From NCBI GenBank assembly GCA_002633005.1, contig NMRA01001176.1, positions 1 through 42,884 of the forward strand: a stretch of 42,884 nucleotides of DNA. Reading direction: 5' to 3'. Each line of letters opens with the position of its first letter. Position 1 is the first letter of the stretch. Source of the stretch: Phoronis australis (lineage: Eukaryota; Animalia; Phoronida). The position numbers and the translations under genes are program-made. Positions 1,131 to 39,912 of this stretch are shown here, in pieces. The notes beneath the pieces are model-generated. The model was not told the DNA's origin and made no database searches. It worked only from the letters and a program-made list of their open reading frames with translations.

Positions 1131-3562
1131 TATCTATAAGACCAAAACGAGAATGTGAAACATAAATTGTGAATTTGATGGAACCTATGTTAGCGAGCAG
1201 TGCACAAAAACTGAAGAAACTCTCACACAACATGCAATCAATGAAAAACGCACAAAAAGACAGTCATCATCGAAATTTCCCATAGCTGGTAGTGGATAAT
1301 ATCTAGGAGCCCATTATCCCACGCAAAGACGACTTATTTCAGTTTCAATGATCTCCAAAACTGCGTTGTGTGGAGTTCTAAGGTAACTGTCAAATCAAAT
1401 CTTGTGCGCGCAAAATATGCGAGTTCTTTGAGAGGAGTCCTGTAGGTTTCAAGATTATGACAAACCTTCACGGCAAAAGTCATGTGCCGATCATATACAT
1501 GTAGCCCTGTTGTGCTTTAGGAGCCTTATTTATTTACAATTTAGTAACAGTAATACCGGACTTGTATCATTCACCGTGATAATGGTCAGAGTTTTTGACA
1601 CTAATTGTTGGCTTTAGCCAGCAACCAAGACTCTGCCTTCCATCATCGTCTATTATAGGAATAATTAATTGTGAAACAGTTTGTCGGTGTGAATTAGAGA
1701 ACATTATGTTGTACACAAATGACCCTGAAAAGAAAGATCACTAAACATATTTGTCAATCGTTTTGGTCATATTTTCTCACCATTAAAATAATTAATTATT
1801 TATCAAAGATAATTAATAGTCTTTATACAGATTTTTGTGCTTTAAATGCATTATTAGACCTCATTTTCAGTCATTGACCGATTTTGGATGATCATCAAGT
1901 GATAGAGTTTGAAAAGTACGTGCAATTCAGCCGGACGTCGATCATAATCATCTCTTTATCCAATACACAGTTGGCACTTTGACAACTTCGCAACTCTCTT
2001 ACTTACACGTCACAGCTAACAATGTCCTGGAATCTCAGTACCCTGTACTCTTTCACGTTGACAAATACGTGCGCTAAAATACTTTGGTATGGGTTTCGAA
2101 AATAATTTAAGAAAACCAGAAGGCAACAGTTTTGGAACCCAAACCCAACGATCTACATGTACGCAAACTTGGCGCTTGTTTCAGCCGATGCGTCATAAAA
2201 TATTTTCAGCACTCGCTTACATCATTTTCCTATGAAAAACAGCATATTGACCACAGTCAATGCCAGCATTTGTATAGTACAATGCCGACAATATGCCTTT
2301 GAACGTCTTTGCACTATCCGTTTCTAAAATTGAAAGTCAACATTTCAGAGTACTCTATACTGGCGCATACAAGGCTTGCTGTGAACACAGGCACACGTAT
2401 TGTCATCGACAAAAGCACACAATCTTGCCAGTGTAGAAATTATTACCGTGCGCTACTTGGTTTTATCATATAGGCAGAATACATTCCTTCTTTTGNTGTG
2501 TCTAGAGATTTGACCGAGCGTTTTCTAGATTATCACAGCTATTTAAAAACGTCCCGTTCAGCTCTCACTTGTGAAGCTTAATGTAACAAGTTGAAATAGC
2601 CCGGAATAACAGTCCTAGTTAGGAGGCAGACTGTTAGAGGATTGGTTTTAATAATGTTTTCATGTTTATAAAGGGGTGCACGAAACTATTACATTATTGT
2701 TTGAATCAAACCTGAGTAGCGTATAATGGTTGAAGGAAATCGAAGAAATGTTTGGTTGGCTTAAACCATTTAATCAGCCTTCAAAGTCAAATTAATGAGA
2801 CTGCCAATAGTCTTTAACCGAAAAAAACAAACCATGTAAACGTAGTACATCTACTCGTACGTTTCTCCAGCCGAATAACTGATAATATTTGAAAGAATGA
2901 AAGGGGTGTCCCTATATTCGGAACATCTCTTTAAAGCATGGATTTACTCAAATGGTTCGCGATAGACAGTAGGCGCACACGTCTAAATCTGGACATAGGA
3001 GTAGCTTCGAAAATAGGTACATTTGTACACACTTGCGTAACATTTAAAAATTATCCAAACGGTGTGACGTTATTTGTCAATTTTCGAATTTAGCCTCAAG
3101 TAAATTTTGGTAGTCATGCGCCCACAGACAGGTGATGAATAATTCCAGTGTCACTTCGATGACACGTTATTAGATTTTACGTAGGAATTGAATTGACGCC
3201 TAATATAATATTTCATTGTTTCTTTTCCGGCAACTGTATTGTAGCAAAATGTTCTCCGTTTTGTTAGATGTCTCCTACCACGTGACTGAGGGGAATGGAT
3301 CCTTTGATGATGTCGCATTAATTTACGTTCTTCTGAGTGCAGCTAGACTACTTGTTAATTAAAAACACATCAAACATCGCTCTTTGACTTACACTAACTT
3401 GACACTTTCTCAATCGCAATCCTGCTCAAGAAAACGAAATCGTGGTGAATACTGTTTCAAAAGAACAATGACCTCGGGGGGAATTCAGCGTTATGCGAAC
3501 GGTTATTTTGGAAGAGAGTACCCGTATTTGACGCATACCTTGAATCCCCCCTTCATTCAGAT

Positions 3563-3583
3563 ACGTGGCACAGTCTATAAATA
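3563..3583 (+). promoter_or_regulatory. TATA box with an adjacent ACGTGGCA (CREB3-like/bZIP) motif; putative promoter of the peptide gene
   Basis: TATAAATA at 3576-3583, 60 nt upstream of ATG 3636 (context ACCATGA). ACGTGGCA at 3563-3570. Confidence 0.55.
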
Positions 3584-3635
3584 CAACGCATGGTCATGTT
3601 TTGCCACTACTGGTGAACATCGAAATACTGTTACC

Positions 3636-3696
3636 ATGAGGACAGTGTGCGCTCTGATTCTCCTTGTCCTTGCAGCTGCAATCCACGCAAAACCAG
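3636..3696 (+). CDS. Secreted prepropeptide gene, exon 1 (signal peptide MRTVCALILLVLAAAIHAKP)
   Basis: Signal peptide with basic N-terminus, hydrophobic core and IHA|KP cleavage site. Phase-1 donor CAG|GTAAC at 3697. TATA box upstream. Confidence 0.85.
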
Positions 3697-4438
3697 GTAA
3701 CGAAACTTCGAGAAAGACATTGATTTTTTTTTCGTATATTTATTTCATCATTTTAAATTGTCATTTTCAATTTAATTGCACATATTTTGTATTTGTGGAA
3801 CCAATATGATGACATGGACAACTTGTGAGTGTAAGGTTTAAACTTACTGACAGTTTTGTTCGACTAGAGCGGCCGGTTTTTGTGGTCGGAGTCCTAGTGG
3901 GTAAGGACGACGACGACGACGCTGATATGGATGAGGAAGACGGAGACTACTTTGGTGATACAGGAAACGGTGATAAAACGATGATTGCAATCATTGTTAG
4001 TACCACAGTCACCGTCGTAGTTTTTTGTCATTACAAAGCTCATGATAAAATTATAGTATTGCTTCATATTATTACAGAAAATATCATTGAAGTCATTAAC
4101 AACACCTCGCCCGTCAAAAATAACATTAATTTGGTTTATATAACTTTTTGCTTGTTGTTAAAACTGGTCACAACCTTTTCCTTATACTACTGAGATGAGA
4201 AGTGAATCCCGGAATTGGGAAGATCTGGCATGTCGCTATTGCTTGAGGCTTTCCTCGCTGCATGAAGTGACCCGCCGTGTCAACTTATTGATCTTGGTCT
4301 GAAGAAAATAACGAACCATGTCGAATCACTTATCTGAATAAAGAGGAATTTGACACTGAAGATACTCGCTGTGGTGTATCGTCGATGTTACAAGGAAGCA
4401 TCAAAGTCTTCAGGCATAACATACTGTATCAGCAAAGT

Positions 4439-4775
4439 CAGTGGCAAATTAGGAGGGGGGGGGGGGGGTTAGGAATCGCGCGAATCCGAAGCGCGTAGCG
4501 CCGAGNNNNNNNNNNNNNNNNNNNNNNNNNNNNNNNNNNNNNNNNNNNNNNNNNNNNNNNNNNNNNNNNNNNNNNNNNNNNNNNNNNNNNNNNNNNNNNN
4601 GAAGCGCGTAGCGCCGAGCGGGGGGAGGTCGGGAGGTTGTTTCCCCCCTCCCGTGAAAGATTTTTTTGTTTTTGTAGCTGATTTCGTTTTTCTGGCGACA
4701 TTTTTTAAAAAGTTTTATTTTTGATCCTGTCGTGGCGGGGTTAAATCCCCTGAACCCCCCGTAGATCCGCCTCTG
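4439..4775. mobile_element. CAG(G/T)GGCGGATC-type MITE spanning an assembly gap
   Basis: Ends CAGTGGCAAATT / AGATCCGCCTCTG with 5-bp TSD AAAGT on both sides. Confidence 0.65.
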
Positions 4776-4916
4776 AAAGTGAAGAAGGGAATATAATTAA
4801 TAATATCAGCGAATAAGGGAAACATAACTATAACTGATTGTTTCAAAATAGAGTGACATGTCTTAAAATTAATTCTGACTTCATACTTTGACTTTTTCTT
4901 TTTATTGCTTCACAAG

Positions 4917-4934
4917 GTGCTCCCAGGACAAGAG
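4917..4934 (+). CDS. Secreted prepropeptide gene, 18-nt microexon 2 (GAPRTR)
   Basis: Long polypyrimidine tract and AAG acceptor (4915-4916), strong donor GAG|GTAAGA. Symmetric phase 1-1 keeps the frame. Confidence 0.65.
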
Positions 4935-6370
4935 GTAAGAAGTAATTATTTTCCTCTCTGTACATCGATGCTTTTCTAAATATATCTGATTTACTGTGGT
5001 ATATGTAGAAAATTGGTCATAAGTAAATCATGTTTTCTACCCGAAAGGTCTCGCTATATGTTGTCAATTAAGTGTAATTCACGGGAGAAACAAACTCTAA
5101 TCAGCCAATGGCGGGAAGGGAGTGTGCACGGTGGGCCAGTCAACAAGGCGCACTGAATAGTTGATGTTATTTCGCCTCCGCGAGCCCCGAGGAAGATAAT
5201 GTTACGTTTGAAACTTCATTTACCTCTAGAGATAAAGTGATACTCATTTGGGGGCAAATTTTGCCTTTTTGCAGTTTGGAAAGGGTGATGAGTTTGCGCC
5301 ACATTACTAGCTGGTCTCGACGAATGGTTCCAATCCATTTGTTGGACTAAATGTTGATTTTTGTAAGGCAACCAAGAGTCACGAACAAATTGCTTCTACG
5401 ACAAACCCCTTCCTCCACTGTGTGTAGAAAATTGAAACGAATGGCAGCAATCGTTAATAAGTAATAGTCAAGCTTCTGACTTTTAACTTATGAAACCACA
5501 TATTTCTAAAATTCTTGATGATCACAAAAGCATATTGTAAGAAAACAATTCACGAAAGTTTGTAGTCATGTGATCGTTTTTATCCCCATTTACACCGAGA
5601 TCATCTTACAGGAAACTTGCAATTTTGCTTTGGTTGATTCCCAGCCTTTATCACCCACAGGGACCGTCCTACTACCGAAGTACGGACCTTCCCTGGATGG
5701 GTGGAACGGACCTAAACATGCAAAGGGCTAGAAATAAGGACAGGCGTTCATATAAGTGCGATGGACTCGAAAAATGGGAAGGAAAGAATTTTACAGTCAT
5801 AAATTAAATGGACAAACAAGAAATGTCCGGGAAAGGACGTGTTTGTGTTGGAAAACATTATTTTTTTCACTAAAAGACGCGTCGTTTAACAAGCTTTCCG
5901 TGATATCACATGCACTACCCAGAGAGACAAAAACCCATAGGAAGAGGTCTGAACGTAGTACCCCGTTTTTTTCTTTTATTTAGACCCCGTTTTTTCTTCA
6001 GTAAGAGGTCCACATACTTAAAAATCTGAGCCCGCTGGGTGCGCGCATGTATCAGATAACGTCAACAATGGTGGGTTTTGTCAAATCGTGTACATTTTGT
6101 CCCCACAATACCCACAATATACGTCCTCTCGAAAAACTAAAAATAAAGCGGCTAAAAATGTACGTTCTGTCGACCAATAAGGAAACCTACTGATTTAAAC
6201 CGTTGAAGGAGAATACCACCCGATTTAATTAGTCTTTTTTACCGCCTTAATCGGTCTATATCCACATCACCTCTTATACGGTCGACCTCGCTTTGCCGAG
6301 AGGTGTCGCGCTAACCTGTGAAGAAGGTGACAAACGGCGCAGCGACGTCAGTGGTTCGTTTGCGGAGTGA

Positions 6371-6582
6371 ATGCCGCTATATTGCGGTGCATCGTTTCCG
6401 CTTGTCCGAACTATGAAGCTGCGAAGAAAGCGGGTATATCATTTTTTCGACTTCCTTGAGAGCCTGAAATGCTTAGGTACTGGCTCGCGGTAGTGAAGAA
6501 TGAAAGGCACGCTGTTAGTTAGAAGTATGAGGCCGTGAAACATATCCGTGTCCGTGGCCGGCATTTCGTCGACAGTGATTTC
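6371..6582 (+). pseudogene. THAP zinc-finger remnant of a transposase
   Basis: Reads MPLYCGA..CPNYEAAKKAGISFFRLP*EPEMLRYWLAVVK...HIRVRGRHFVDSDF, matching the THAP pattern (C..C.N, FFRFP, W, HF..DF) with stops and a frameshift. Confidence 0.75.
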
Positions 6583-7329
6583 TCTGACGAATTCGGCTTA
6601 CTAAAGAACTATACATACGTGCCGTTGCCTGTGCATGTTCACGGCGCCTCTCTAGTGTTTCTTGATCGGTTTATTCCGGTTCAAACTGATAGCCTGTGAA
6701 AAACAACGATCCGACCCGTGAAGTCTTTGTCAGATGAGCTCTTGACTAAGTCGGGATTGGCACCGGGCGAGTTGCCATGTAGACGTTTATTATTCTGCGT
6801 TCTGTTTCAAAATGAATTAGTCTCATCCTAACCAATGCTTATACAATGTATGAAACTGAAACAAACTGTGTCTCATTAGATATAATTTGTTATGCCTTTG
6901 CAGTATTCGTGAGCGCAAATGTTGAGAAGCCAGCAATGAATAAACCACTGTGTTACCGGCTTTTGATACCGCCAACAAAAGTAATTGACGGGGCACCGAG
7001 GCCGTGTGAGCGCATGCTAATTCAGAGTTTGATGACAGAAAGCTGTTGTGAAACAATTACTCGATTTTATATGCTATGGTCACATGTTAGGGGAATTTTT
7101 ATTTAGAAATACAAAGACTCAATTCAAATCATCGTTACTCTAAAACCTTTGCCCTGTCGGTCTATGGAAAGGGAACCCGATTTCGCGGCCCCCGACAAGT
7201 AAGTAGATTTTCAGTTTCGTGGCCAATTCACATAAATAATTACGTACACATTATTTCTTTGGCTCACTATTACAGTCTTTTCGTAACTGGAGGTTTAGTT
7301 TCAAACTCAAGCTGGTTTATGTTCGTGCC

Positions 7330-7443
7330 AGTCCCGGCGGCCGCGACGGGCCTGATCATGTTCCGAGCCACTGGCCGAGATAACGAGTCAGTCCGGACGC
7401 GCTGGGCCTGATCGGGTTCCAAGCCACTGGCCGGGATAACGAG
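7330..7443 (+). repeat. Two-copy GC-rich tandem repeat of about 57 nt
   Basis: GGGCCTGATC..GTTCC.AGCCACTGGCCG.GATAACGAG occurs twice. Confidence 0.7.
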
Positions 7444-8775
7444 CGTTTCGTGTGTTTAGAACTCAAAAAATCACAAGTGTAAACAACACAGATCTAGGTT
7501 CTCCTGAGTGTATTTCACGGAAGAATACTTCGTCTTTATCTCCAAACAGACCCCAAACTCCTGCTACGGACCTTGGTAAATTGGCCTGCCGAACTTTGTA
7601 GGCTACGGAGTGTCCAAACACCAATAAAGCCGTGACAGTGAAATAAAACAACACGTTTTTATAAGAACTCGGTGTAGTTTTAAGGGTTTTACATCGAAGT
7701 TTGATGATTTATTGGTGTTAAACGATGAATTCAGACGATAAGCTGACACCAGTAACCCGTGTTGTGAACTGCTGAATGGACTGCGCGTGAAACCAACGAC
7801 GTCACAGGATAATTTCAACACTTCAGTCTGCCGTCAGGTGTCAGGTAACACAACCGAACGTGCCGTTATCGAGTAGAACTACTCGATCTAAACTGATACA
7901 AAATGGGTTGTTTTTTGTGGCATTCTCCTTTAATGGCTATAAAATTGATCTCCACTTGTTCTCAGTAATTCACAAGTTAGCAAAGAACTGTCATTTTGTT
8001 ACTTTTTACTGCCAATTGTAACTTCTGTGTCGTCAGTGTCCAAGTCGGTGATGACTTTTTCATTGATGGACTTATCATTGTCACGTCTATTACCGTCTGA
8101 TCACTATGGGGGAAGACGTTGATAGCGGAGAACTTTCAGTTGAACGGACTGGTTCGACTTCTCGTAGCGACACCTATGGCATCGTGGGGTTGCCGTGTCG
8201 TCGGTGTCGGTGATGTCGAGTGCCAACTATTAGGCCGACAGATTCGACTGATTACTACCGTGTCGTCGATCGACTATGTCTCAACTAACTGCCTTGAAGA
8301 ACCATATAAGGTCTAAGCGCTGCCTCTTTGTCTTTTTGTTCTTTAGTGGACTAATCTACTCACATCGTCAGCTTCAGTTTATCGAGTACCTGAAATCCCT
8401 AAGATTGAATCATGGTCATTTTGGTTCATCTCTCCCCAAATACCTGTCCAATCAATTCTACACGAAGTTGTAACTGCAGTGTGTAGACACTAATCCAAAG
8501 AAGTCGTATAGCTGCAAAGTCTAGAGTAGGTACCATGCAAACATGGTCACATCGCGTGACCTGCTAGTAATTCCTTACAATTCAGAAATACAACCGCCTG
8601 ACTTGCATGTGTTTTGAAGGACTTGGCGTCCATGTTGTGGACATTTACAGTAATATGAATGATGATAACCATGTAGGACTCTGCAGGGTATCTACTGCAT
8701 GTATATACATCTCAACATCATTGCCGTATTCATTTTTCTTCTGAAACCAGGTTTTTCTTTACATTTCTTTTATAG

Positions 8776-8939
8776 CAGCTGCAAAGAATTTCGAATTACG
8801 GATTACTAAGAAAAGCGATGCCGGCATGGCTTCGGTGTATGAGTCTGAAGAAAACGCCAACGTCTTCCTGAACAGGGAAACAAGACGCTGGGGAAGTGAA
8901 GAGTTCCGAGAGTTTAGAGAAGGCTTTGGGCGTCGCTGA
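8776..8939 (+). CDS. Secreted prepropeptide gene, exon 3: gamma-carboxylase-type propeptide plus Glu-rich amidated peptide
   Basis: Polypyrimidine tract and TAG acceptor (TAGCAG tandem acceptor). Phase-1 reading gives AAAKNFELRITKKSDAGMASVYESEENANVFLNRETRRWGSEEFREFREGFGRR-stop (TGA 8937-8939). Joined CDS is 61+18+164=243 nt, 80 aa. Confidence 0.8.
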
Positions 8940-9789
8940 AATCGGAATAGATTTTGTCACCTTTCGCTGTGCTATTCATTTAATGAATGAAATAACATTA
9001 CAAAAATTACATGTACCTCAAAAATAATCTGGCAAATATTCTTGTATCATACTTGTGTGATAGTTTTGAGTTGTCTTGCCCTGGCTGTCACAAGATTTTC
9101 CAATGGAGCACACACTGTGTACTTTTAAGCAAAAATGTGTACTTGCATGCGTCATGCGCATTCAACTAAGTGCTAAATGATTATAATAGATTTAGGCATG
9201 GTTACTCAAGTGATCGTACCTTCTCGAGAATGGTCAGCAAATATTGTTCAGCTTGTTGGGCATGACAACTTTCGCCAATGAACGTCTACTCTAAAAGGAG
9301 GTGAATTATTAAGAGAATTGGAGAACCAGAAACAGAAAGGAGACAGGCGTAATGTTGACCCGGCGAAAGAAGAAAAGCACGATGTCTTCATTGACATCGG
9401 TGCTAGAGGAGGATACAGTAAGGTTTCTGGGAACGGATTTCTAGCAGGCCAAAACCATTTACCCATTAGGAAATTACTGAATCATTTCAAACTTAAGGGG
9501 ATGTTTTTGCCTCCATGAATTTCTTATCAAACCATGCCTACAGGTAAGTACTAAATGTCTACAGTTAACTATCAGAACAACTCTACGCACTACGAGTGCA
9601 GAATCAAAGCAGAACCGTTACAACTCTTGGCATCCATATGGGTGATCATTTGGGAGGATCTGTGTGCCTACTAGTATTAATCTCGAGTGCTTTCAACTGG
9701 AGCATAGATAGTTTGGGCACTGATTCACTAATTATTTAGTGAAAAAGAGTGAACATACAATCACAAACTGGTGTCATATGTTAGCAAAA

Positions 9790-11900
9790 ATGTTATGCAA
9801 AATTCCATTTTTGCGTACAATTTCCTTACGAAGCACTGCAGTCAGATAATTTTGACGTTTTACCCATGTTTCTATGGTCAACAAATTTTATAGTGCAAGT
9901 TTTTAGGTGAATACATTGTCAATTTGCATAATTTATGCAAATTAAGACCGCATTTATACACAATTCTGTTTTTGTTTATAATTTCCTTACCAGGCACTTC
10001 AGGCAGGTCATTTTGATGCTTTGAACCATGTTTCCATGGTCAATGAATTTAATAGTGAAAGTTTTTGGGTGCATACATCGTCAATTTGCATAATTTATGC
10101 AAATTAAGGCCGTCATTATTCAAAATTTTACTTGTTCTAATAGCTATGGAACCAATCATCACAGGTGAATTATCATTATTGCACCTATGTTTCTATGGTC
10201 AATTAGTTAAATTGACACCAGTTTGCATGTTGCTGCATGATAAATTTGCATAATTAATGCAAATTAAGGCCACCATTATTCAAAATTATTTGTTGCTTAA
10301 AGCTCCCTTACCAAGCACTGCACCCATGCTTCCATGGATCGTGAATTTAATGGACCTCCTTTGCTTGTGGATGCATGGTGAATTTGCTTAATATATGAAT
10401 AATATATGCAAATTAAGGCCGCCATTATTCAAAATTCTTCTTTTTCTTGTAGCTAAAGTACCGGGCACACCAAGAAATCTATTTTAACGTCTTTACCCAT
10501 GTTTCTGTGAAATCGGTTTGCAAGTTGTTGCATGATGAATTTTCATATTTTATGCAAATAATGGACACCACTATTCCAAGTACTGTCTCTGCTCTTAATC
10601 TCCATACGGGTGTTACATGTAGATTATTTTCGAATTTATCCCATGGTTGTGATAATTTAAGCAAATTACAGTTGCCATATTCAAAATTCTACTTGTGCTT
10701 ATAAGTGCTCTATCAGACACCAGAGGTTAATTATAAATATTTAAACCCATATTTCCGTAGTTAATGAATTTACCTGTTATGGAATGAAGAGAATCAGGAA
10801 GATGTCAGGAATGAGACTACTGGTCTGGGGAAGAGAAATAGCAAGAAATATATGTCCGCCCCCAAATTGTCACCAACAACAAAGGCATTCAAAGAGAATG
10901 TAAACGTAAACAGATCCCATTACCAGTAAGTCATGTGGTGGAATGTCACCTATTGCATAGTAGTGATGATTAGGTGTGACTGCAAAGGTCATATTTCACG
11001 AAATTCAAGTAGATACAATTGAAAAGCCAATTTTCTACCCCGCACAATATTTTGGACACATTATTAGTAGTGTGTTCACGTTCCGAGTGTTGAATTAGCA
11101 TTTGAAACGTCTTGTGACTGGTCTCCATTCGATAGGTTATTGTCCTGGGTTTATGCAATTAAACAATTTAGTCATCTACTACTGCATATACCCTGGGTAT
11201 CAGACAAAATTAGACATAGTAATGTAGTATGATAAATAATTATTATTTATATTTATGATGTAATAACAGATTACATTAAATTCATCAGTGAAAATACCAA
11301 AATAATTTACATGTGGTGCCCCCCGTAAGAAAGTTACGAGCAGAAACAGAACTTTTGATAATGGCTGCCTTTTTCTACATAAATTATGCTAATTTATTGT
11401 GCAATTTGCAAACTGATTTCATTTACCTAATTGACCATAGGAACATAGGTTAAAATATCATGAGAGTTTACTTGTGGTGCTTGGTGCAGCAGCTATAAGC
11501 ACAAGTAGCTATATGCACAAGTAAAATTCTGAATAAAAGCGCCCTTAATTTGCATTAGTTCTGCAAATTTGCATTAATTATGCAACTTTATCCTGCAACA
11601 ACATGCAAAGCGATTTCATTAAACTAATTGACTAAAAGAATATAGGTGCAAATATCATGATAGTTCGTCTGGAGTGCCTGGTAGAGTAGCTATAAGCACA
11701 AAAAAATTTTGAATAATGGCGGCCTTAATTTGCAAAAAGTATGCAAATTGACAATGTATTCACCTAAAACTTGCATTATTAAATTTGTTGACCATGAAAA
11801 CATGGGTAAACGTCAAAATCATCGGGCTGCAGTGCTTGATAAGGAAATTATAAGCAAAAATAGAATTTTACATAATCGCAACCTTAATTTGCATATTTAA
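9790..11900. repeat. Large foldback built from tandem units of about 170-180 bp
   Basis: Left arm repeats TTGCATAATTTATGCAAATTAAGGCCGCCATTATTCAAAATT-like units. About 11370-11900 carries their reverse complement, e.g. about 9820-9950 versus 11720-11860. Confidence 0.75.
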
Positions 11901-15170: not shown

Positions 15171-16539
15171 TTAAAGTCCACCAAAGATTATATGACACCT
15201 ATTTTGATAAACACTTTTAATAGTGCTCTGCGATCAGGGGAATTTCCTCAGTCCTGGTGTAACGCTATATAATGGCCGTTGCATAAGCAAGGGGACGTCA
15301 ATGATGTAAATAATTGTCGGTGTATTTCACTCCTGCATGTTCTCGGGAAAATTTTTACGAAACTTATAAACGTTCGTGTAACAGATCGGGCCAACGATAA
15401 CGACTTATTTAACGAAGCTCAGGCTTGCTTCAGAAAAGGATATAGCACAATAGACCAAATTTTTACCTTACAAGGAATTGTTCATAAGTATTTGGATGTG
15501 CGCAGGGGCAGATTTTATGCTACATACGTGAATTTTTCTCAGGCTTTGACAGCATTTCACATACATTTTTGTGGAATACGCTAAAATTGATGAAAAGTAT
15601 GTATTCAAAGATAAGAGCGGGTGTAAGAACTGAACGTGGTTAACTGAATTTTTCAGTAATAATATTGGTAATCGCCAAGGGTGTACGCTTAGTCTTTTTA
15701 TTTAGTATGTATTTGAACGAGTTTGTTGATTACTTAAAAGAATCTTTAAATAGCGGATTTTACGTAAATGAGAATGTACCTCAAATTTGTATGTTGCTAT
15801 ACGCTGATGATATGGTTGGTTGTGCAGAGACAGCATTTAAACTACAGCAACAAATCAACGTTCTGCATGAATACTGTCAGGATTGGGGTATGAAAATCAA
15901 CTTCACAAAAACAAAAATAACGGTATTTAGAAAGGCGGACCATTGAGAAAATACGAAAAATGGCATTTTGGAAATGACAAAATTGATGTCGTCTTATCAT
16001 ATAAGTACCTCGTTATTTGCCTTACTCCTAAGTAAGTTTGGACGGAAGCTACGGAAACTTTGTCTCACCAGGCACAGAAAGCAAATCTTTTCAATAAAAC
16101 GTTTTCAGTCAAAATGTGGACAACTTTCACCGAAAATTGAAATCGAAATTTTTGATCAAATGGTATACCTAATCATTAGCTATGGCAGTGGGATTTGGGA
16201 TTTAAAGAATATTCTAGTATCGAGCACGTCCAATTGAAATTCTGTAAGCAACTGCTGGGTGTTGGAAATAACTGGGAACTGGGAAGGTATACAATTTATG
16301 CAAAGCTGTTCGTTAAACTGATCAAGTATTGGTTTAAATTGTTGAAAAATGCCAGGATATCGAAATCCAAAATCTGTCCATGACAAGCTTGTCACATTGG
16401 ATGAGATTGGTAGGAAAAATTGGGCTGCATCTGTAAGGGATTTGCTGCAAAGATGTGGCTTTGGATTGGCACATGTATGGCACAATCAGGGAGTTGGCTG
16501 CGAAGCATCTTTTCTTGTCATTTTTGATCAGCGAATTAA

Positions 16540-17456
16540 AGATTGTTTTTTGCAGGACTGGAGCTTTTCTGTGGAGAATAGAATGTACAAAATCAAGTTT
16601 AACAACGGAAAGTGTGTTTGAAATTGTTAAGCAACAAGGGTTAGACGAAGATTTGGAATTTGTTATAATTTGGTTTCGGGATGGAATAGCGCCTGATCCG
16701 GATGTGCTGTTGTTATCATCGGAGACAGCCAAAGTTTACTGGACAAATAAATAATTATTCTCGGATGCGAATGTGCTTGTTTTACGATCACGACGTAAGT
16801 AAACGTCCGTTAATTTTGGTTCCGCCGAGTTTGCGGTGTGAAATTATCCGGGTTCATCGCGATCTTCTGTCTGCAGCACCAGGGCCAGGAAAGGATTCAT
16901 TCAAAAATCCGGTTAAAATATTATTGCCGTCAAATGCGGAATGACGTCATCCGGTTTGTTGAAAGTTGCGCTGTCAGTAATGAGAGAAAGGGAGTTGNAG
17001 ATTGTTTTTTGCAGGACTGGAGCTTTTCTGTGGAGAATAGAATGTACAAAATCAATTTTAACAACGGAAAGTGTGTTTGAAATTGTTAAGCAACAAGGGT
17101 TAGACGAAGATTTGGAATTTGTTATAATTTGGTTACGGGATGGAATAGCGCCTGATCCGGATGTGCTGTTGTTATCATCGGAGACAGCCAAAGTTTACTG
17201 GACAAATAAATAATTATTCTCGGATGCGAATGTGCTTGTTTTACGATCACGACGTAAGTAAACGTCAGTTAATTTTGGTTCCGCCGAGTTTGCGGTGTGA
17301 AATTATCCGGGTTCATCGCGATCTTCTGTCTGCAGCACCAGGGCCAGGAAAGGATTCATTCAAAAATCCGGTTAAAATATTATTGCCGTCAAATGCGGAA
17401 TGACGTCATCCGGTTTGTTGAAAGTTGCGCTGTCAGTAATGAGAGAAAGGGAGTTG
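16540..17456 (+). repeat. 458-bp tandem duplication separated by a single N (probable assembly artefact)
   Basis: 16540-16997 and 16999-17456 differ at about 3 positions, with N at 16998. Confidence 0.9.
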
Positions 17457-17950
17457 TTCGGAAAGCACGAACCACTTATGTAAAAAACCAAGCCGGTTGC
17501 CCAATGGCACGGGTTCATATTGAGTATTTAGGTCCATTGCCAGTGACGGAACGTGAAAATTATCATATTTTGGTGGTTGTTGACCAATTTACAAATTAGA
17601 TCAAATGCATTCCGGTACCTGATCAACGGTCGGAAACTACAGCCCGGGTGGTCGCTGATCAAATATTTTCGCGTTACTGGTGTCCTCTACAAATCTTCTC
17701 GGAGAGGGGTTCGAACTTTCAAAGTGAAGTGTTTAGATCGGTGTGTGCTCCATTATGTAAGCACCAACGGCTTACCGACCTAGCGCCAATGGTCAAACGG
17801 AGAGGGTAAGCCCGGCGGACCAAAATGAACGCTATTCTGTGCTACGTGCGCCACATTCTCGTGTGAGCCGGTCAACGGGGTTTGCAACGAACCAATTGAT
17901 GTTGGGTCGGCATGTTATGACGATGTAATGTTTGCAATTTGATCCGAAAT
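16590..17950 (+). mobile_element. Gypsy-like LTR retrotransposon integrase fragment (decayed)
   Basis: LILVPPSLRCEIIRVH, HQGQERIHSKIRLKYY..QMRNDVIRFVESCAVS (HHCC zinc finger), PMARVHIEYLGPLP, ILVVVDQFT, GSNFQSEVF, NGQTER. Confidence 0.85.
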
Positions 17951-22253: not shown

Positions 22254-24414
22254 TTACATCTTGGTTGTTTCTGAATCATTTAACTCCGAGCAGTTGTTGT
22301 AATCGCTACACTCACTCTTAGAGGTCTTCCGTTGACCTGCGTTGCTGGATAACGAACTATTGGGGCTAGTTCTCCTTGAAACAAACTTACGGTACTTCAA
22401 AAAGATAGTTTTCGTGCATATAAAAGCAAAAAATATGAAGAGCCCTTGCAGGGAATTGAACGTGATGAACAGATACCATAACACGTGACTTCCAGTAAGA
22501 GCTCCTAAATAGCCAAAGATCCACGTGCTTCCCATAACAGTGGAAAGTTTAACTGTTATCAGAAACACGCGATTATTTTCACCTTTTTCTTGATATTCTT
22601 TCTGACTTGACGTTTGACTTTTATAAGCTGGATAATAGTTAACACAATGAAAGTGTTATTGATGAATATGAGAATCGCTAAAGGCATCGCAAACCCATAA
22701 AGAATTGCTTCGAATCCGGAAATCCAGCACATTTTCTCGTCTGCGTATCGGAAAGGTACTTCAGTGGCGAATTCCAAGACAATGCATGAGGCAATAATCA
22801 ATAAAGGACTCAGCAACGAATACATCGCGTACTTATAAATTGCATACGAAGATGGTTTTTGTGCCTTCAAAACGTTATGAAAGGTTTTGAAAACACAAAA
22901 ACACATACTGTTCATCCAAAAGAATGCGCACAACCACAGAAAATGTTCAACTACAGCCACTGTCTTACATAATGCTGGAATTTCAGTACGATCAATTGCG
23001 GCTAACATTATGAGTTGTGCCATAAAAAGTGTTATAGCGAGGTTCATCATAATTTGACCAGGCAGTGTTCGAAGTTCCTTGAAAAGTGCGTACGTCATCA
23101 CAAATATTGCAAGTCCACACAAACTGATCAGGCTTCCGGCAACCGTCAGTTTGTACTGAGCTTTGTTGTATTCAAAAAAACGTAAACCAGACCCATTCGT
23201 AAACGGATTGCAAACATACAATAAATTGCCTTGAATGAAGTAGTCACCTGGCTGAAACGACAAACCAGAGTTTACATATGCAATATCGTCCTTCACTTCA
23301 TACTCGTCATCTCTGTATCTGATCATTGGACACTTAAGATCGAAAGAATTATTGGCGGTATTGGTATGATTCAAAGACGTATTGCTCAACTTATTTATAT
23401 TCACAGTTTCATTTCCGCACGATCCATCAAGCATTCTCCATTTTCTCCGTGGGCAAACTAATGGACGACATTTCTTTGCCAGTTTGTCATAGACGCTGTT
23501 TTCAGAACAGGGCACAAATGGCCTACTTATCTTACGACTAAATTCGTCGCTCATCCCTGTGAAATCTATTAGATGCGAAAATCCCCAATATCCATCAATG
23601 GGGAGTGTCCGAGGGTCAACACAAAATAGTCTTCGCCATCCTCCACGAGTACAACGCCCGAATTTCAACTTCACGACATCATCATCAGTATCGGGGAAGT
23701 AGTCTGAGAAATACATGTATGACCAACACTCTACCGCGGTACGAGGGCAACTGTTCCTACATCCTGTGCTCTTAGGTTCCACGAGTACGTTACAGTTGTG
23801 TGTGAACGATGGTACCTTGTAAACTAACTTAAAACCGCTCGAGTTGTACAGTTTTCGTATCAGTGCCGTACCGGTAAGATTTTTCACAGTGCTATAAAAC
23901 AGCCGCTTTTGCTCTTCGTATGACTTCATATTGTGGATTTCAAAGCTGCTTCGCCAAAAGGCTCCCCCTTGAAGAAGTTGTGACACTTCCACACGATGAC
24001 AGATTGCGCAATAGATGTTCCGGAAGGAGTAGTACCTCCCATCTTTCAAATATCCGTTCACAGGCAAAACCTGGAACACGTCGTCATTGTTTTTAGAGTG
24101 GCACTTGTTAGTAATAATCGCGTCGTTAAAATCACCAGGACAACGCGAGATGAGTATACTTCCGAAAGACGCAGTGGCAAAATCTAACTCAAGACACTCT
24201 GTGTAAGGTTTGATTGATGAGAAATTCTTTGCACTTGGTTTGTAATCGTGACAACAATCACCGAAATCGGTACAGAACTGATCACAATAACACACTTGTA
24301 TCTGACGTTGTTCCCTATCTTCTACGAACGGCGATGAGCAAGAAATACCACAGGCCTGATACAACGATGGCTTAGAAGGCTGAGAATCACAGGGAACTCC
24401 GCACGTTTGGAACA
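22254..24414 (-). CDS. Family-B Methuselah/adhesion-like GPCR, large coding exon (somatomedin-B-like domain, Cys-rich ectodomain, 7TM) with one frameshift
   Basis: CYCDQFCTDFGDCCHDY (24242-24292), FRNIYCAICH, LRTLPGQIMMNL, CKTVAVVEHFLWLCAFFWMN, CWI, then VKLSTVMGSTWIFG and FNSLQGLFIFFAF in another frame. Acceptor TTTTCAG| before 24414. One extra base in the T5 run at 22584-22588 restores a single frame. Confidence 0.88.
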
Positions 24415-24601
24415 CTGAAAACAGCACACGTCATTGGGTATCTATTGCATGTAAGGTAGTGTTTACTTGATAGGTGTTAAACTACAAGTCATCTTCGAAT
24501 CACAAAACCAATGACGTTTACACCACAATAAGTGTAGACAAATGTTGCTCATATGTGCAGTCCTGCTCACATGTGTGCGCCTCTATCAATGTTTTGAAAG
24601 C

Positions 24602-38891: not shown

Positions 38892-39912
38892 TAGATTATT
38901 ACATGGCGAAGTTGTTATCCCCCGTTATCTAGAGCCCGAGTGAATTTTCGAGAATTATTGCCCGAGGGGCGTTATACCACATATTGCAATGAATCGATCT
39001 ACCTTTTTCGACTCGCCTCGGCTTTGTAACTACTTCCTATGTCAGAGGCCCAGGGTCGGAGGTCGTGACCTTTTAAGAAAAGCCGAGCTATTTTTGTCAA
39101 ATAATGCTTTAATCAAAACCAATTGAAAAATAAAACAAACTAGAAATAAAGTGAATCTATAAATTAAGGTTTAGCAACTAATATAGCTTACTACACATTT
39201 TATCACGCTAAGCTTGGACCGGGAAAATATCGTCTGCTAAAGTAGGTTACCACTAATAACTGACTATAAGGCTCAAGTCAAAGTATCCGACGACACGATA
39301 CCCGCATTCAAATTGGAGATCGGTGATTTCCAAGTGAGAGAACACGAGACAAAAATTTCACTTACTTAAAATATCGTTTTCATGGAAATTATGCGTCTTA
39401 TTTTTCAAAGCGTATAAATGTCGGTGCAATGCCCTTTGCTGAACATGCGATTGTTGCGCGTGCTCATTTAAGTACTCTATTTTCAGGTTCGATGACGTCA
39501 GCCGCTGAGTGGCGTAGTGGTAAAGTCGGCGACTCGAAATTCTTGAGGCCCTGGTTCAAATCCGGCCTCGGTTTCCCGCCAAAATGATATCTCACCAGTG
39601 AGATAACTTTATGGGTTATTACACGGTTGTATCTGCCATTCCAGGCTAATATTGTGGGTCTTTGACATAGAAAGTAGTTACAAAGCCGAGGCGAGTCGAG
39701 AAAGGTAGATCGATTCATTGCAATGTTTCTCGTTCAGTATGTGGGATAAATAGATTATTACATGTTCTCAATCGTTATCCCGCTTATCTAGAGGCCTCAT
39801 GGATTTTGGAGAATTATCACCCTCGGGGCTAACGCTCCTCGGGCAAAAATTCTCCAAAATTCACTCGGGTTCTAGATAACGGGGTGTTACGACTTTGCCA
39901 TGTAATAGTCTA
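38892..39912. mobile_element. Composite palindromic element with nested inverted repeats
   Basis: Ends TAGATTATTACATGGC / GCCATGTAATAGTCTA with about 80 bp of inverted match. Inner inverted pair at about 38983-39050 and 39655-39723. 39751-39912 is itself a hairpin. Confidence 0.75.
39501..39573 (+). pseudogene. tRNA-like sequence (pseudo-tRNA or SINE head)
   Basis: A box TGGCGTAGTGG, B box GGTTCAAATCC, T stem CTGG/CCGG, loop CTCGAAA (CGA). Acceptor and anticodon stems are mismatched and there is no long Ser variable arm. Confidence 0.6.

Follow-up and report, generated by a model that had tools for sequence, protein, structure and literature searches.

A three-exon gene encodes a small precursor

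The window analyzed here (the whole stretch of 42,884 nucleotides) is animal genomic DNA of approximately 39% G+C with long introns, repeats, and LINE and LTR fragments, a composition and content that point to an invertebrate source. Its forward strand carries a small gene whose three exons were predicted from sequence (3636-3696, 4917-4934 and 8776-~9024) and then borne out by RNA reads. For this purpose four public RNA runs labelled as one species (X1-X4, of which X1 consists of contigs and X2-X4 of raw reads, about one-fifth of the reads in each raw run being used) were aligned to positions 3000-10000. The features of the gene and its predicted product are as follows:

3576..3583 (+): TATA-like box ahead of exon 1, putative in function, at a distance of 42 nt from the 5' read cluster at 3618
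3618..3696 (+): exon 1, with a short 5' UTR, ATG at 3636, 61 coding nt, the signal peptide, and a phase-1 intron with a GT donor
3636..3689 (+): signal peptide of ~18 aa with a hydrophobic core at residues 6-15 and a predicted cleavage site
4917..4934 (+): exon 2, an 18-nt micro-exon of phase 1-1, from RNA reads
8776..9024 (+): exon 3, with spacer, propeptide, mature peptide, stop and 3' UTR, from RNA reads
8776..8831 (+): pro-region spacer, altered in the X1 contig by 15 inserted nt that keep the frame and by an Ala>Thr change
8832..8888 (+): putative propeptide for gamma-carboxylation recognition, with its basic processing site (an 18-mer plus one Arg)
8889..8927 (+): predicted mature 13-mer, with Glu at 4, 5, 8 and 11, three Phe and no Cys
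8889..8893 (+): G run with a +1 frameshift allele (one extra G after 8889), which places a stop two codons past Trp and loses all four Glu
8928..8939 (+): Gly-Arg-Arg amidation signal and stop (8937-8939), from the sequence, amidation being predicted from standard peptide processing

In X2, X3 and X4, respectively, 397, 520 and 950 reads link exon 1 with exon 3 by way of the micro-exon letters, and 51, 77 and 96 reads show the GT..AG joint of exons 2 and 3. A minor tandem acceptor 3 nt downstream (8776-8778), use of which costs one codon, accounts for 4, 3 and 10 reads. At the 5' side, read ends in the RNA runs cluster at 3618/3621, while at the 3' side loose poly(A) ends occur at 9024 in the X1 contig and at 9009 in 4 reads of X3. 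First mates fall almost entirely on the minus strand, which under the usual stranded library corresponds to plus-strand RNA, and exon 3 is covered by 46, 78 and 141 read pairs per million in X2-X4. Because these reads are splice-joined, stranded and abundant, the three-exon gene is real, spliced and well expressed.

The spliced frame encodes 80 aa, comprising in order a signal peptide, the spacer, the propeptide, Arg-Arg, the 13-mer WGSEEFREFREGF, Gly-Arg-Arg and a stop. A hydrophobic, signal-like segment suited to secretory entry starts the product of the spliced mRNA, and together with the dibasic site and the Gly-basic-basic end it completes the hallmarks of an amidated precursor, the processing itself being predicted. 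In an AlphaFold2 single-sequence model of 8826-8927 (34 aa; mean pLDDT 84, pTM 0.44), helices span residues 8-22 and 24-32; a Foldseek search with this model returned 0 matches, the model being too short for much weight.

The surroundings of the gene are rich in repeats. Intron 1 contains an assembly gap (an N run at 4506-4600) with G+C-rich repeat flanks, and intron 2 a multi-copy element (6200-7920), both strands of which occur in many divergent RNA reads and which is probably a transposon relic. Just downstream of the gene, at 9790-11900, an array of ~150-200-nt repeats with a palindromic core is arranged in two opposite blocks, forming a long imperfect inverted repeat. Broken pieces of reverse transcriptase and a zinc-binding piece of an integrase lie at 15273-17600, and a 300-nt direct repeat occupies 16530-16829 and 16989-17288. 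On the minus strand, 22254-24430 holds an intronless GPCR with somatomedin-B and 7tm_2 domains, the frame of which shifts near 22580-22620, ahead of the last two helices, consistent with a pseudogene, an allele or an assembly error; it has no homologues at E<=1e-10, and the clusters it falls into in the Atlas come from molluscs, arthropods and cnidarians. A tRNA-Ser(CGA)-like element called by ARAGORN at 39503-39576 (+) is unconfirmed by Rfam, which returned nothing; it lies between inverted repeats and is perhaps SINE-derived.

The propeptide resembles docking sites of the carboxylase GGCX

Translation of 8832-8885 on the forward strand yields the same 18-mer as the original prediction, which had aligned it without gaps to the factor IX propeptide at 9 of 18 identities. 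That count holds against PDB chain 9bvk_P, shown from -17 (V, E, N, A, N, L, N, R, R), as do the aromatic at -16 (Tyr), Ala-10, Leu-6, Arg-4 and Arg-1 when residues are numbered back from the Arg at 8883-8885. In this numbering the 18-mer carries V-17, Y-16, E-15, A-10, N-9, F-7, L-6, N-5, R-4 and R-1. The second Arg at 8886-8888 means that a dibasic cut would make Trp residue 1 and shift the numbering by one.

In place of an HMM, we used as docking consensus the pattern given in two cryo-EM papers on human GGCX substrates. These papers place a small residue at -10 (PRS2), a bulky residue at -7 with Leu at -6 (PRS3), and Val at -17 (PMC13187478, PMC12647623), and one of them terms Phe-16 invariant among GGCX substrates and -15 hydrophobic, with Ala there reducing stimulation (PMC13187478). 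Against this consensus of human substrates, PRS1 (hydrophobic -17 to -15, Phe-16) is fitted by Val-17, with Tyr-16 aromatic but not Phe and Glu-15 a misfit, while PRS2 (Ala or Gly at -10) is filled by Ala-10 and PRS3 (hydrophobic -7; Leu, Val or Ile at -6) by Phe-7 and Leu-6. The 18-mer therefore fails the strict docking pattern, with strict matches to five of seven published features (V-17, A-10, N-9, F-7 and L-6). In prothrombin peptide studies Tyr at -16 was reportedly tolerated, and an acid at -15 is said to have raised Km. Positions N-9, R-4 and R-1 are those of known factor IX mutations (PMC7395276).

The site had been described as of coagulation-factor type. The match is no closer to that type than to matrix Gla protein (MGP), with which the 18-mer shares an ANxF motif and Phe-7: in the MGP docking site, the Ala of ANxF has an aromatic residue six positions before it (PMC8006282), and Phe occupies -7 (PMC13187478). 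A likeness to the propeptide of Gla-rich protein (UCMA) was also suggested in the original prediction. Downstream of the site, Glu residues lie within reach at +5, +6, +9 and +12 (factor IX numbering). In the structural account, the Glu in the GGCX catalytic cavity is +6 in factor X and +7 in factor IX (converted from Glu46 and Glu53; PMC13187478), and relative to factor X the first Glu of the present peptide is one residue closer to the docking site.

How readily such a pattern arises by chance was estimated from shuffles in which the basic site was held and the 41 upstream residues were permuted. The core pattern, relaxed post hoc to allow Tyr at -16 and any residue at -15, recurred in register in 7 of 200,000 shuffles and in either register in 17 of 200,000, while the whole pattern including the Glu pair was recovered in 0 of 200,000 full shuffles. 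Since the core pattern had been relaxed after seeing the sequence, we added feature-count scoring, four rules of which gave 24, 194, 470 and 3,065 per 300,000; the first of these is for 6 of 7 features with any aromatic and Asn-9 counted, and the last for 4 of 6 features with Phe only and Asn not counted. Hydrophobic-background shuffles gave 143 and 1,523 per 300,000. Without the basic site the core pattern is common, with 9 occurrences in 85,764 six-frame residues of the window and 36 in 92,342 residues of background ORFs, which are mostly bacterial and include repeated homologues. With R-x-x-R added, the site at 8832-8885 is the sole match in the window, and none of the 786 background R-x-x-R sites matches. 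The probability of a chance match in a single precursor is thus about 8e-5 to 1e-2 depending on the scoring rule, which is better than chance and indecisive genome-wide: with hundreds of small precursors per genome, values of 1e-4 to 1e-2 would leave room for chance matches.

Database searches and predicted complex

A search of the PDB returned the factor IX propeptide-Gla chain as the best of 177,635 sequences (E 0.76), and a second placed factor IX chains at ranks 1 and 3 (E 0.32 and 0.73) with a porin between them (0.58; 0.58-1.2 across the PDB searches). The factor IX alignment extends into the Gla domain as far as its first Glu-Phe. No other vitamin-K-dependent chain in the PDB was matched at E<=10, nor did the 20-aa propeptide alone match any PDB entry at that threshold. 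The top rank of factor IX is suggestive, and the PDB scores fall short of significance.

Exon 3 matched no Pfam family, PF00594 included, and as a query it found no homologues among proteins of 29-93 aa and no usable match in the Atlas. Two matches among 1.84 billion representatives were rejected as repeat proteins whose scores were the sum of weak stretches. None of 595 candidate stretches from metagenome contigs was confirmed, and a tblastn search for paralogues within the window found none. Two further leads were set aside as chance: Cas10d, the only PDB match for the mature region, and 120 loci sharing 17-base matches, which are prokaryotic. No true homologue was found in these searches, which counts against the docking reading. 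Four words of the peptide were absent from the literature searched, a collection that omits most subscription journals, and no earlier report of such a peptide was met in that same collection.

For a partner enzyme we used P0008, which is GGCX-like, comes from the snail Physella acuta and aligns to residues 34-611 of human GGCX (E 1e-176). Of the propeptide-contact residues, Tyr415 and Tyr425 are conserved in it, and Ile, Ile and Ser stand in place of Leu426, Val430 and Phe431. These three substitutions alter the surface (residues ~453-471 of P0008) that in human GGCX faces propeptide positions -17/-16, so a different set of residues may be tolerated at these positions by enzymes of invertebrates. 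Predictions of P0008 with the 34-aa peptide scored 0.50, 0.47 and 0.55 against 0.00 in three controls, a result graded as 'weak support', with contact agreement of at least 52%, partner pLDDT of at least 49 and no interface given. In calibration, 51 of 78 solved pairs and 2 of 108 mismatched pairs attained the pass mark; passes at 0.60 or below comprised only 5 of the 78 solved pairs and all 4 passing mismatches, peptides lie outside this calibration, and a pass in this range is wrong in more cases than it is right, save where the pairing already had good prior odds. The pass may also reflect memory or likeness, given that solved human GGCX-propeptide complexes exist and that the enzyme is from another species. 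On balance the predicted complex may raise the odds of the docking reading a little.

Taken together, the original claim of a GGCX docking site survives in qualified form: two of the three subsites are filled, the precursor is expressed and the complex prediction passes weakly, but Tyr-16 and Glu-15 depart from the consensus and the sequence scores by themselves are at chance level.

The predicted product is not a Gla domain

Placed on an ideal helix, the 13-mer has its four Glu on one face and its three Phe on another, an arrangement equalled on both counts by 0.66% of 100,000 shuffles. The Glu are spaced i, i+1, i+4 and i+7 and are followed by the Gly-basic end, such that conantokin-type Glu spacing on one helix face and an amidated end are both predicted. 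The families of larger Gla proteins do not accommodate it. Gla domains have approximately 45 residues with ExxxExC and a disulfide, whereas the present peptide has 13, is Cys-free and has no Pfam match; MGP and osteocalcin have an ExxxExC Gla core and four exons, against no Cys and three exons here; and GRP/UCMA has a Glu-rich mature peptide of 67-74 aa and five coding exons, against 13 aa and three exons. By these defining features the product is not a Gla domain, MGP/osteocalcin or UCMA. Among peptide hormone families, allatotropin, CCK/sulfakinin and TRH/EFLGamide (GSEFLamide) were rejected, since their termini do not fit.

A common frameshift allele and a divergent contig

The frameshift in the G run is carried by 79 of 227 reads in X2 and 135 of 402 in X3 (~35%, a share below one half), by 0 of 647 in X4, and is absent from the X1 contig. 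The reads that carry it start at 35 places in X2 and 53 in X3, and no compensating change is listed at a 2% threshold. That X4 is free of the frameshift argues against a sequencing slip, and an allele that is heterozygous or pooled is the likeliest source. The allele retains the whole propeptide. Because a form that removes the Glu residues is common, the 13-mer is probably dispensable in at least one copy. The new end created by the frameshift also reads Gly-Lys-stop, which is again of amidation type.

The X1 contig (8509-9024) is approximately 3% divergent, with 16 other letters over 516 bases at a depth of 2262. It is unspliced at its 5' side from 8509, has a poly(A) end and carries 6-nt and 15-nt insertions, exon 1 being uncovered in X1; it may represent a divergent allele, a sister species or an intron-retaining form. 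Its changes comprise the 15-nt in-frame insertion and Ala>Thr in the spacer, a silent change at Glu-15 and Glu>Ala at -3, with the docking positions and the 13-mer unchanged. This pattern fits with constraint, the changes being too few to test selection.

Discussion

In this work we describe a small, well expressed gene whose product we think is probably a vitamin-K-dependent, amidated mini-peptide that combines conantokin-like Glu spacing with a vertebrate-type propeptide. The established parts of this reading are the gene structure, its expression and the anatomy of the sequence; the steps of the mechanism would run as follows. The signal peptide would bring the precursor into the ER, where V-17/Y-16, A-10 and F-7/L-6 would sit in the propeptide clamp of GGCX, with an affinity probably below that of factor IX owing to Glu-15. 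The tethered enzyme would carboxylate the Glu pair 5-6 residues on and then the next two Glu, up to four in a processive manner, after which a proprotein convertase would cut the propeptide off at Arg-Arg, and a carboxypeptidase and PAM would convert Gly-Arg-Arg to an amide. With Gla at i, i+1, i+4 and i+7, Ca2+ could staple an amphipathic helix that presents three Phe on its other face. Within this reading, a Ca2+-switched, helical signaling ligand of conantokin-like action appears the likelier role, favored because of the amide, while binding to mineral or anionic membranes in the manner of osteocalcin or MGP would be a lesser though substantial prospect.

The evidence also has to be weighed against a simpler account, in which the gene encodes the precursor of an ordinary amidated neuropeptide or hormone, with an acidic spacer that resembles a docking site by chance and a 13-mer that is modified only by its amide and has a receptor as its target. 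Precursors of this kind usually carry a signal peptide, a dibasic site and Gly-Arg-Arg, the Tyr among the Glu could be a sulfation site, and no database score rises above chance; the strictest fair score was reached by as many as 3,065 of 300,000 shuffles, the core pattern alone is frequent, and there are two departures at PRS1. This account would nevertheless have to treat as coincidence a match that is in register with the processing site and has a Glu pair at the right distance (0/200,000), the four Glu in 13 residues that share a helix face, and the weak GGCX pass against controls at 0.00; the absence of the four peptide words from the literature searched also weighs against it, and we regard it as rather unlikely. 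The alignment to factor IX, which reaches no further than the Glu-Phe at the start of the Gla domain, would suit a different history, namely the shortened descendant of a Gla-domain gene that kept only the signal peptide, the propeptide and the first Gla loop. Such a product might still bind GGCX, the 13-mer being a relic under weak selection or the propeptide serving as a decoy or tuner of the carboxylase. The frameshift allele, which keeps the propeptide and loses the Glu, points in the same direction, as does the lack of a homologue in the searches made. High expression, the clean amidation signal that directly precedes the stop codon and a 13-mer unchanged in the X1 contig are in keeping with a working peptide, and no Cys or remnant of ExxxExC precedes the stop; we consider this descent improbable.

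Returning to the vitamin-K-dependent peptide, its fullest form would be an endogenous, gamma-carboxylated and amidated 13-residue signaling peptide that couples a docking site of vertebrate type with a Ca2+-stapled helix of the conantokin kind, is a natural substrate of an invertebrate GGCX, and possibly models a minimal ancestor of Gla domains, MGP/osteocalcin and conantokin-like peptides, a proposal that we advance tentatively. GGCX is conserved in animals without a clotting cascade, invertebrates included (PMC7564532), and fly GGCX knockouts show no apparent defect (PMC5578492), which raises the question of its original substrates. If the reading is true, this would be a rare natural GGCX substrate in an invertebrate, where the enzyme is largely an orphan, and a vitamin-K-dependent peptide signal outside cone-snail venom; it would also mean that a vertebrate-type docking site can serve a product without a Gla domain, and it would bear on whether an invertebrate enzyme with an altered surface tolerates Tyr-16/Glu-15. 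The common natural null allele would in that case allow a test of genotype against phenotype, and as the 13-mer can be made with and without Gla, the question is directly testable.

The original prediction had further suggested an ancient shared recognition signal, which is partly known already from tunicate Gla-domain proteins and the Commissureless pattern. Tunicate Gla proteins have vertebrate-like propeptides. The occurrence of Gla-domain proteins in tunicates is documented (PMC9643190), and an F/A/L propeptide pattern was proposed for Drosophila Commissureless (PMC5578492). That an invertebrate has a docking site of vertebrate type is therefore not new in itself; the novelty would lie in its serving a Cys-free, amidated 13-mer, a use not met in the literature searched.

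Comparison with known systems

With amidated invertebrate neuropeptide precursors the present precursor shares the signal peptide, an acidic spacer, the dibasic site and Gly-Arg-Arg, but it matches no known family, and its C-terminus is unlike those of allatotropin, CCK/sulfakinin and TRH/EFLGamide. With the propeptides of factor IX, factor X and PRRG/TMG proteins it has in common V-17, A-10, N-9, a hydrophobic residue at -7, L-6, R-4, R-1 and a Glu pair after the cut; in contrast to these Gla-domain proteins, it has Tyr-16, Glu-15, an extra Arg and an amidation end, and no Gla domain.

MGP, osteocalcin (BGP) and UCMA resemble it in being small secreted precursors with clustered Glu and a docking site, which is putative in the present case, the ANxF motif and Phe-7 being a likeness specific to MGP. 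In MGP and BGP, as in the present gene, the signal peptide lies on exon 1 and is followed by a very short exon 2. The precursor differs from all three in having no ExxxExC core, three exons rather than four or five, a far shorter and amidated product, and no sequence match. Neither lamprey nor amphioxus data yielded MGP/BGP (PMC8006282), and UCMA is reported as absent from invertebrates (PMC13204790).

The predicted product also has a likeness to the conantokins of the Conus B1 superfamily, although there is no sequence match, Trp is at position 1 and the propeptide is of vertebrate type. Conus carboxylation recognition sites differ from those of vertebrates, and conantokin-G forms a Ca2+-induced helix. 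The likeness lies in a short and mostly Cys-free peptide with Glu-Glu near the N-terminus and then Glu at +3 and +3, and it extends to conantokin-E2, which as printed in a review table (PMC9897318) has the same Glu spacing and Gly-basic end.
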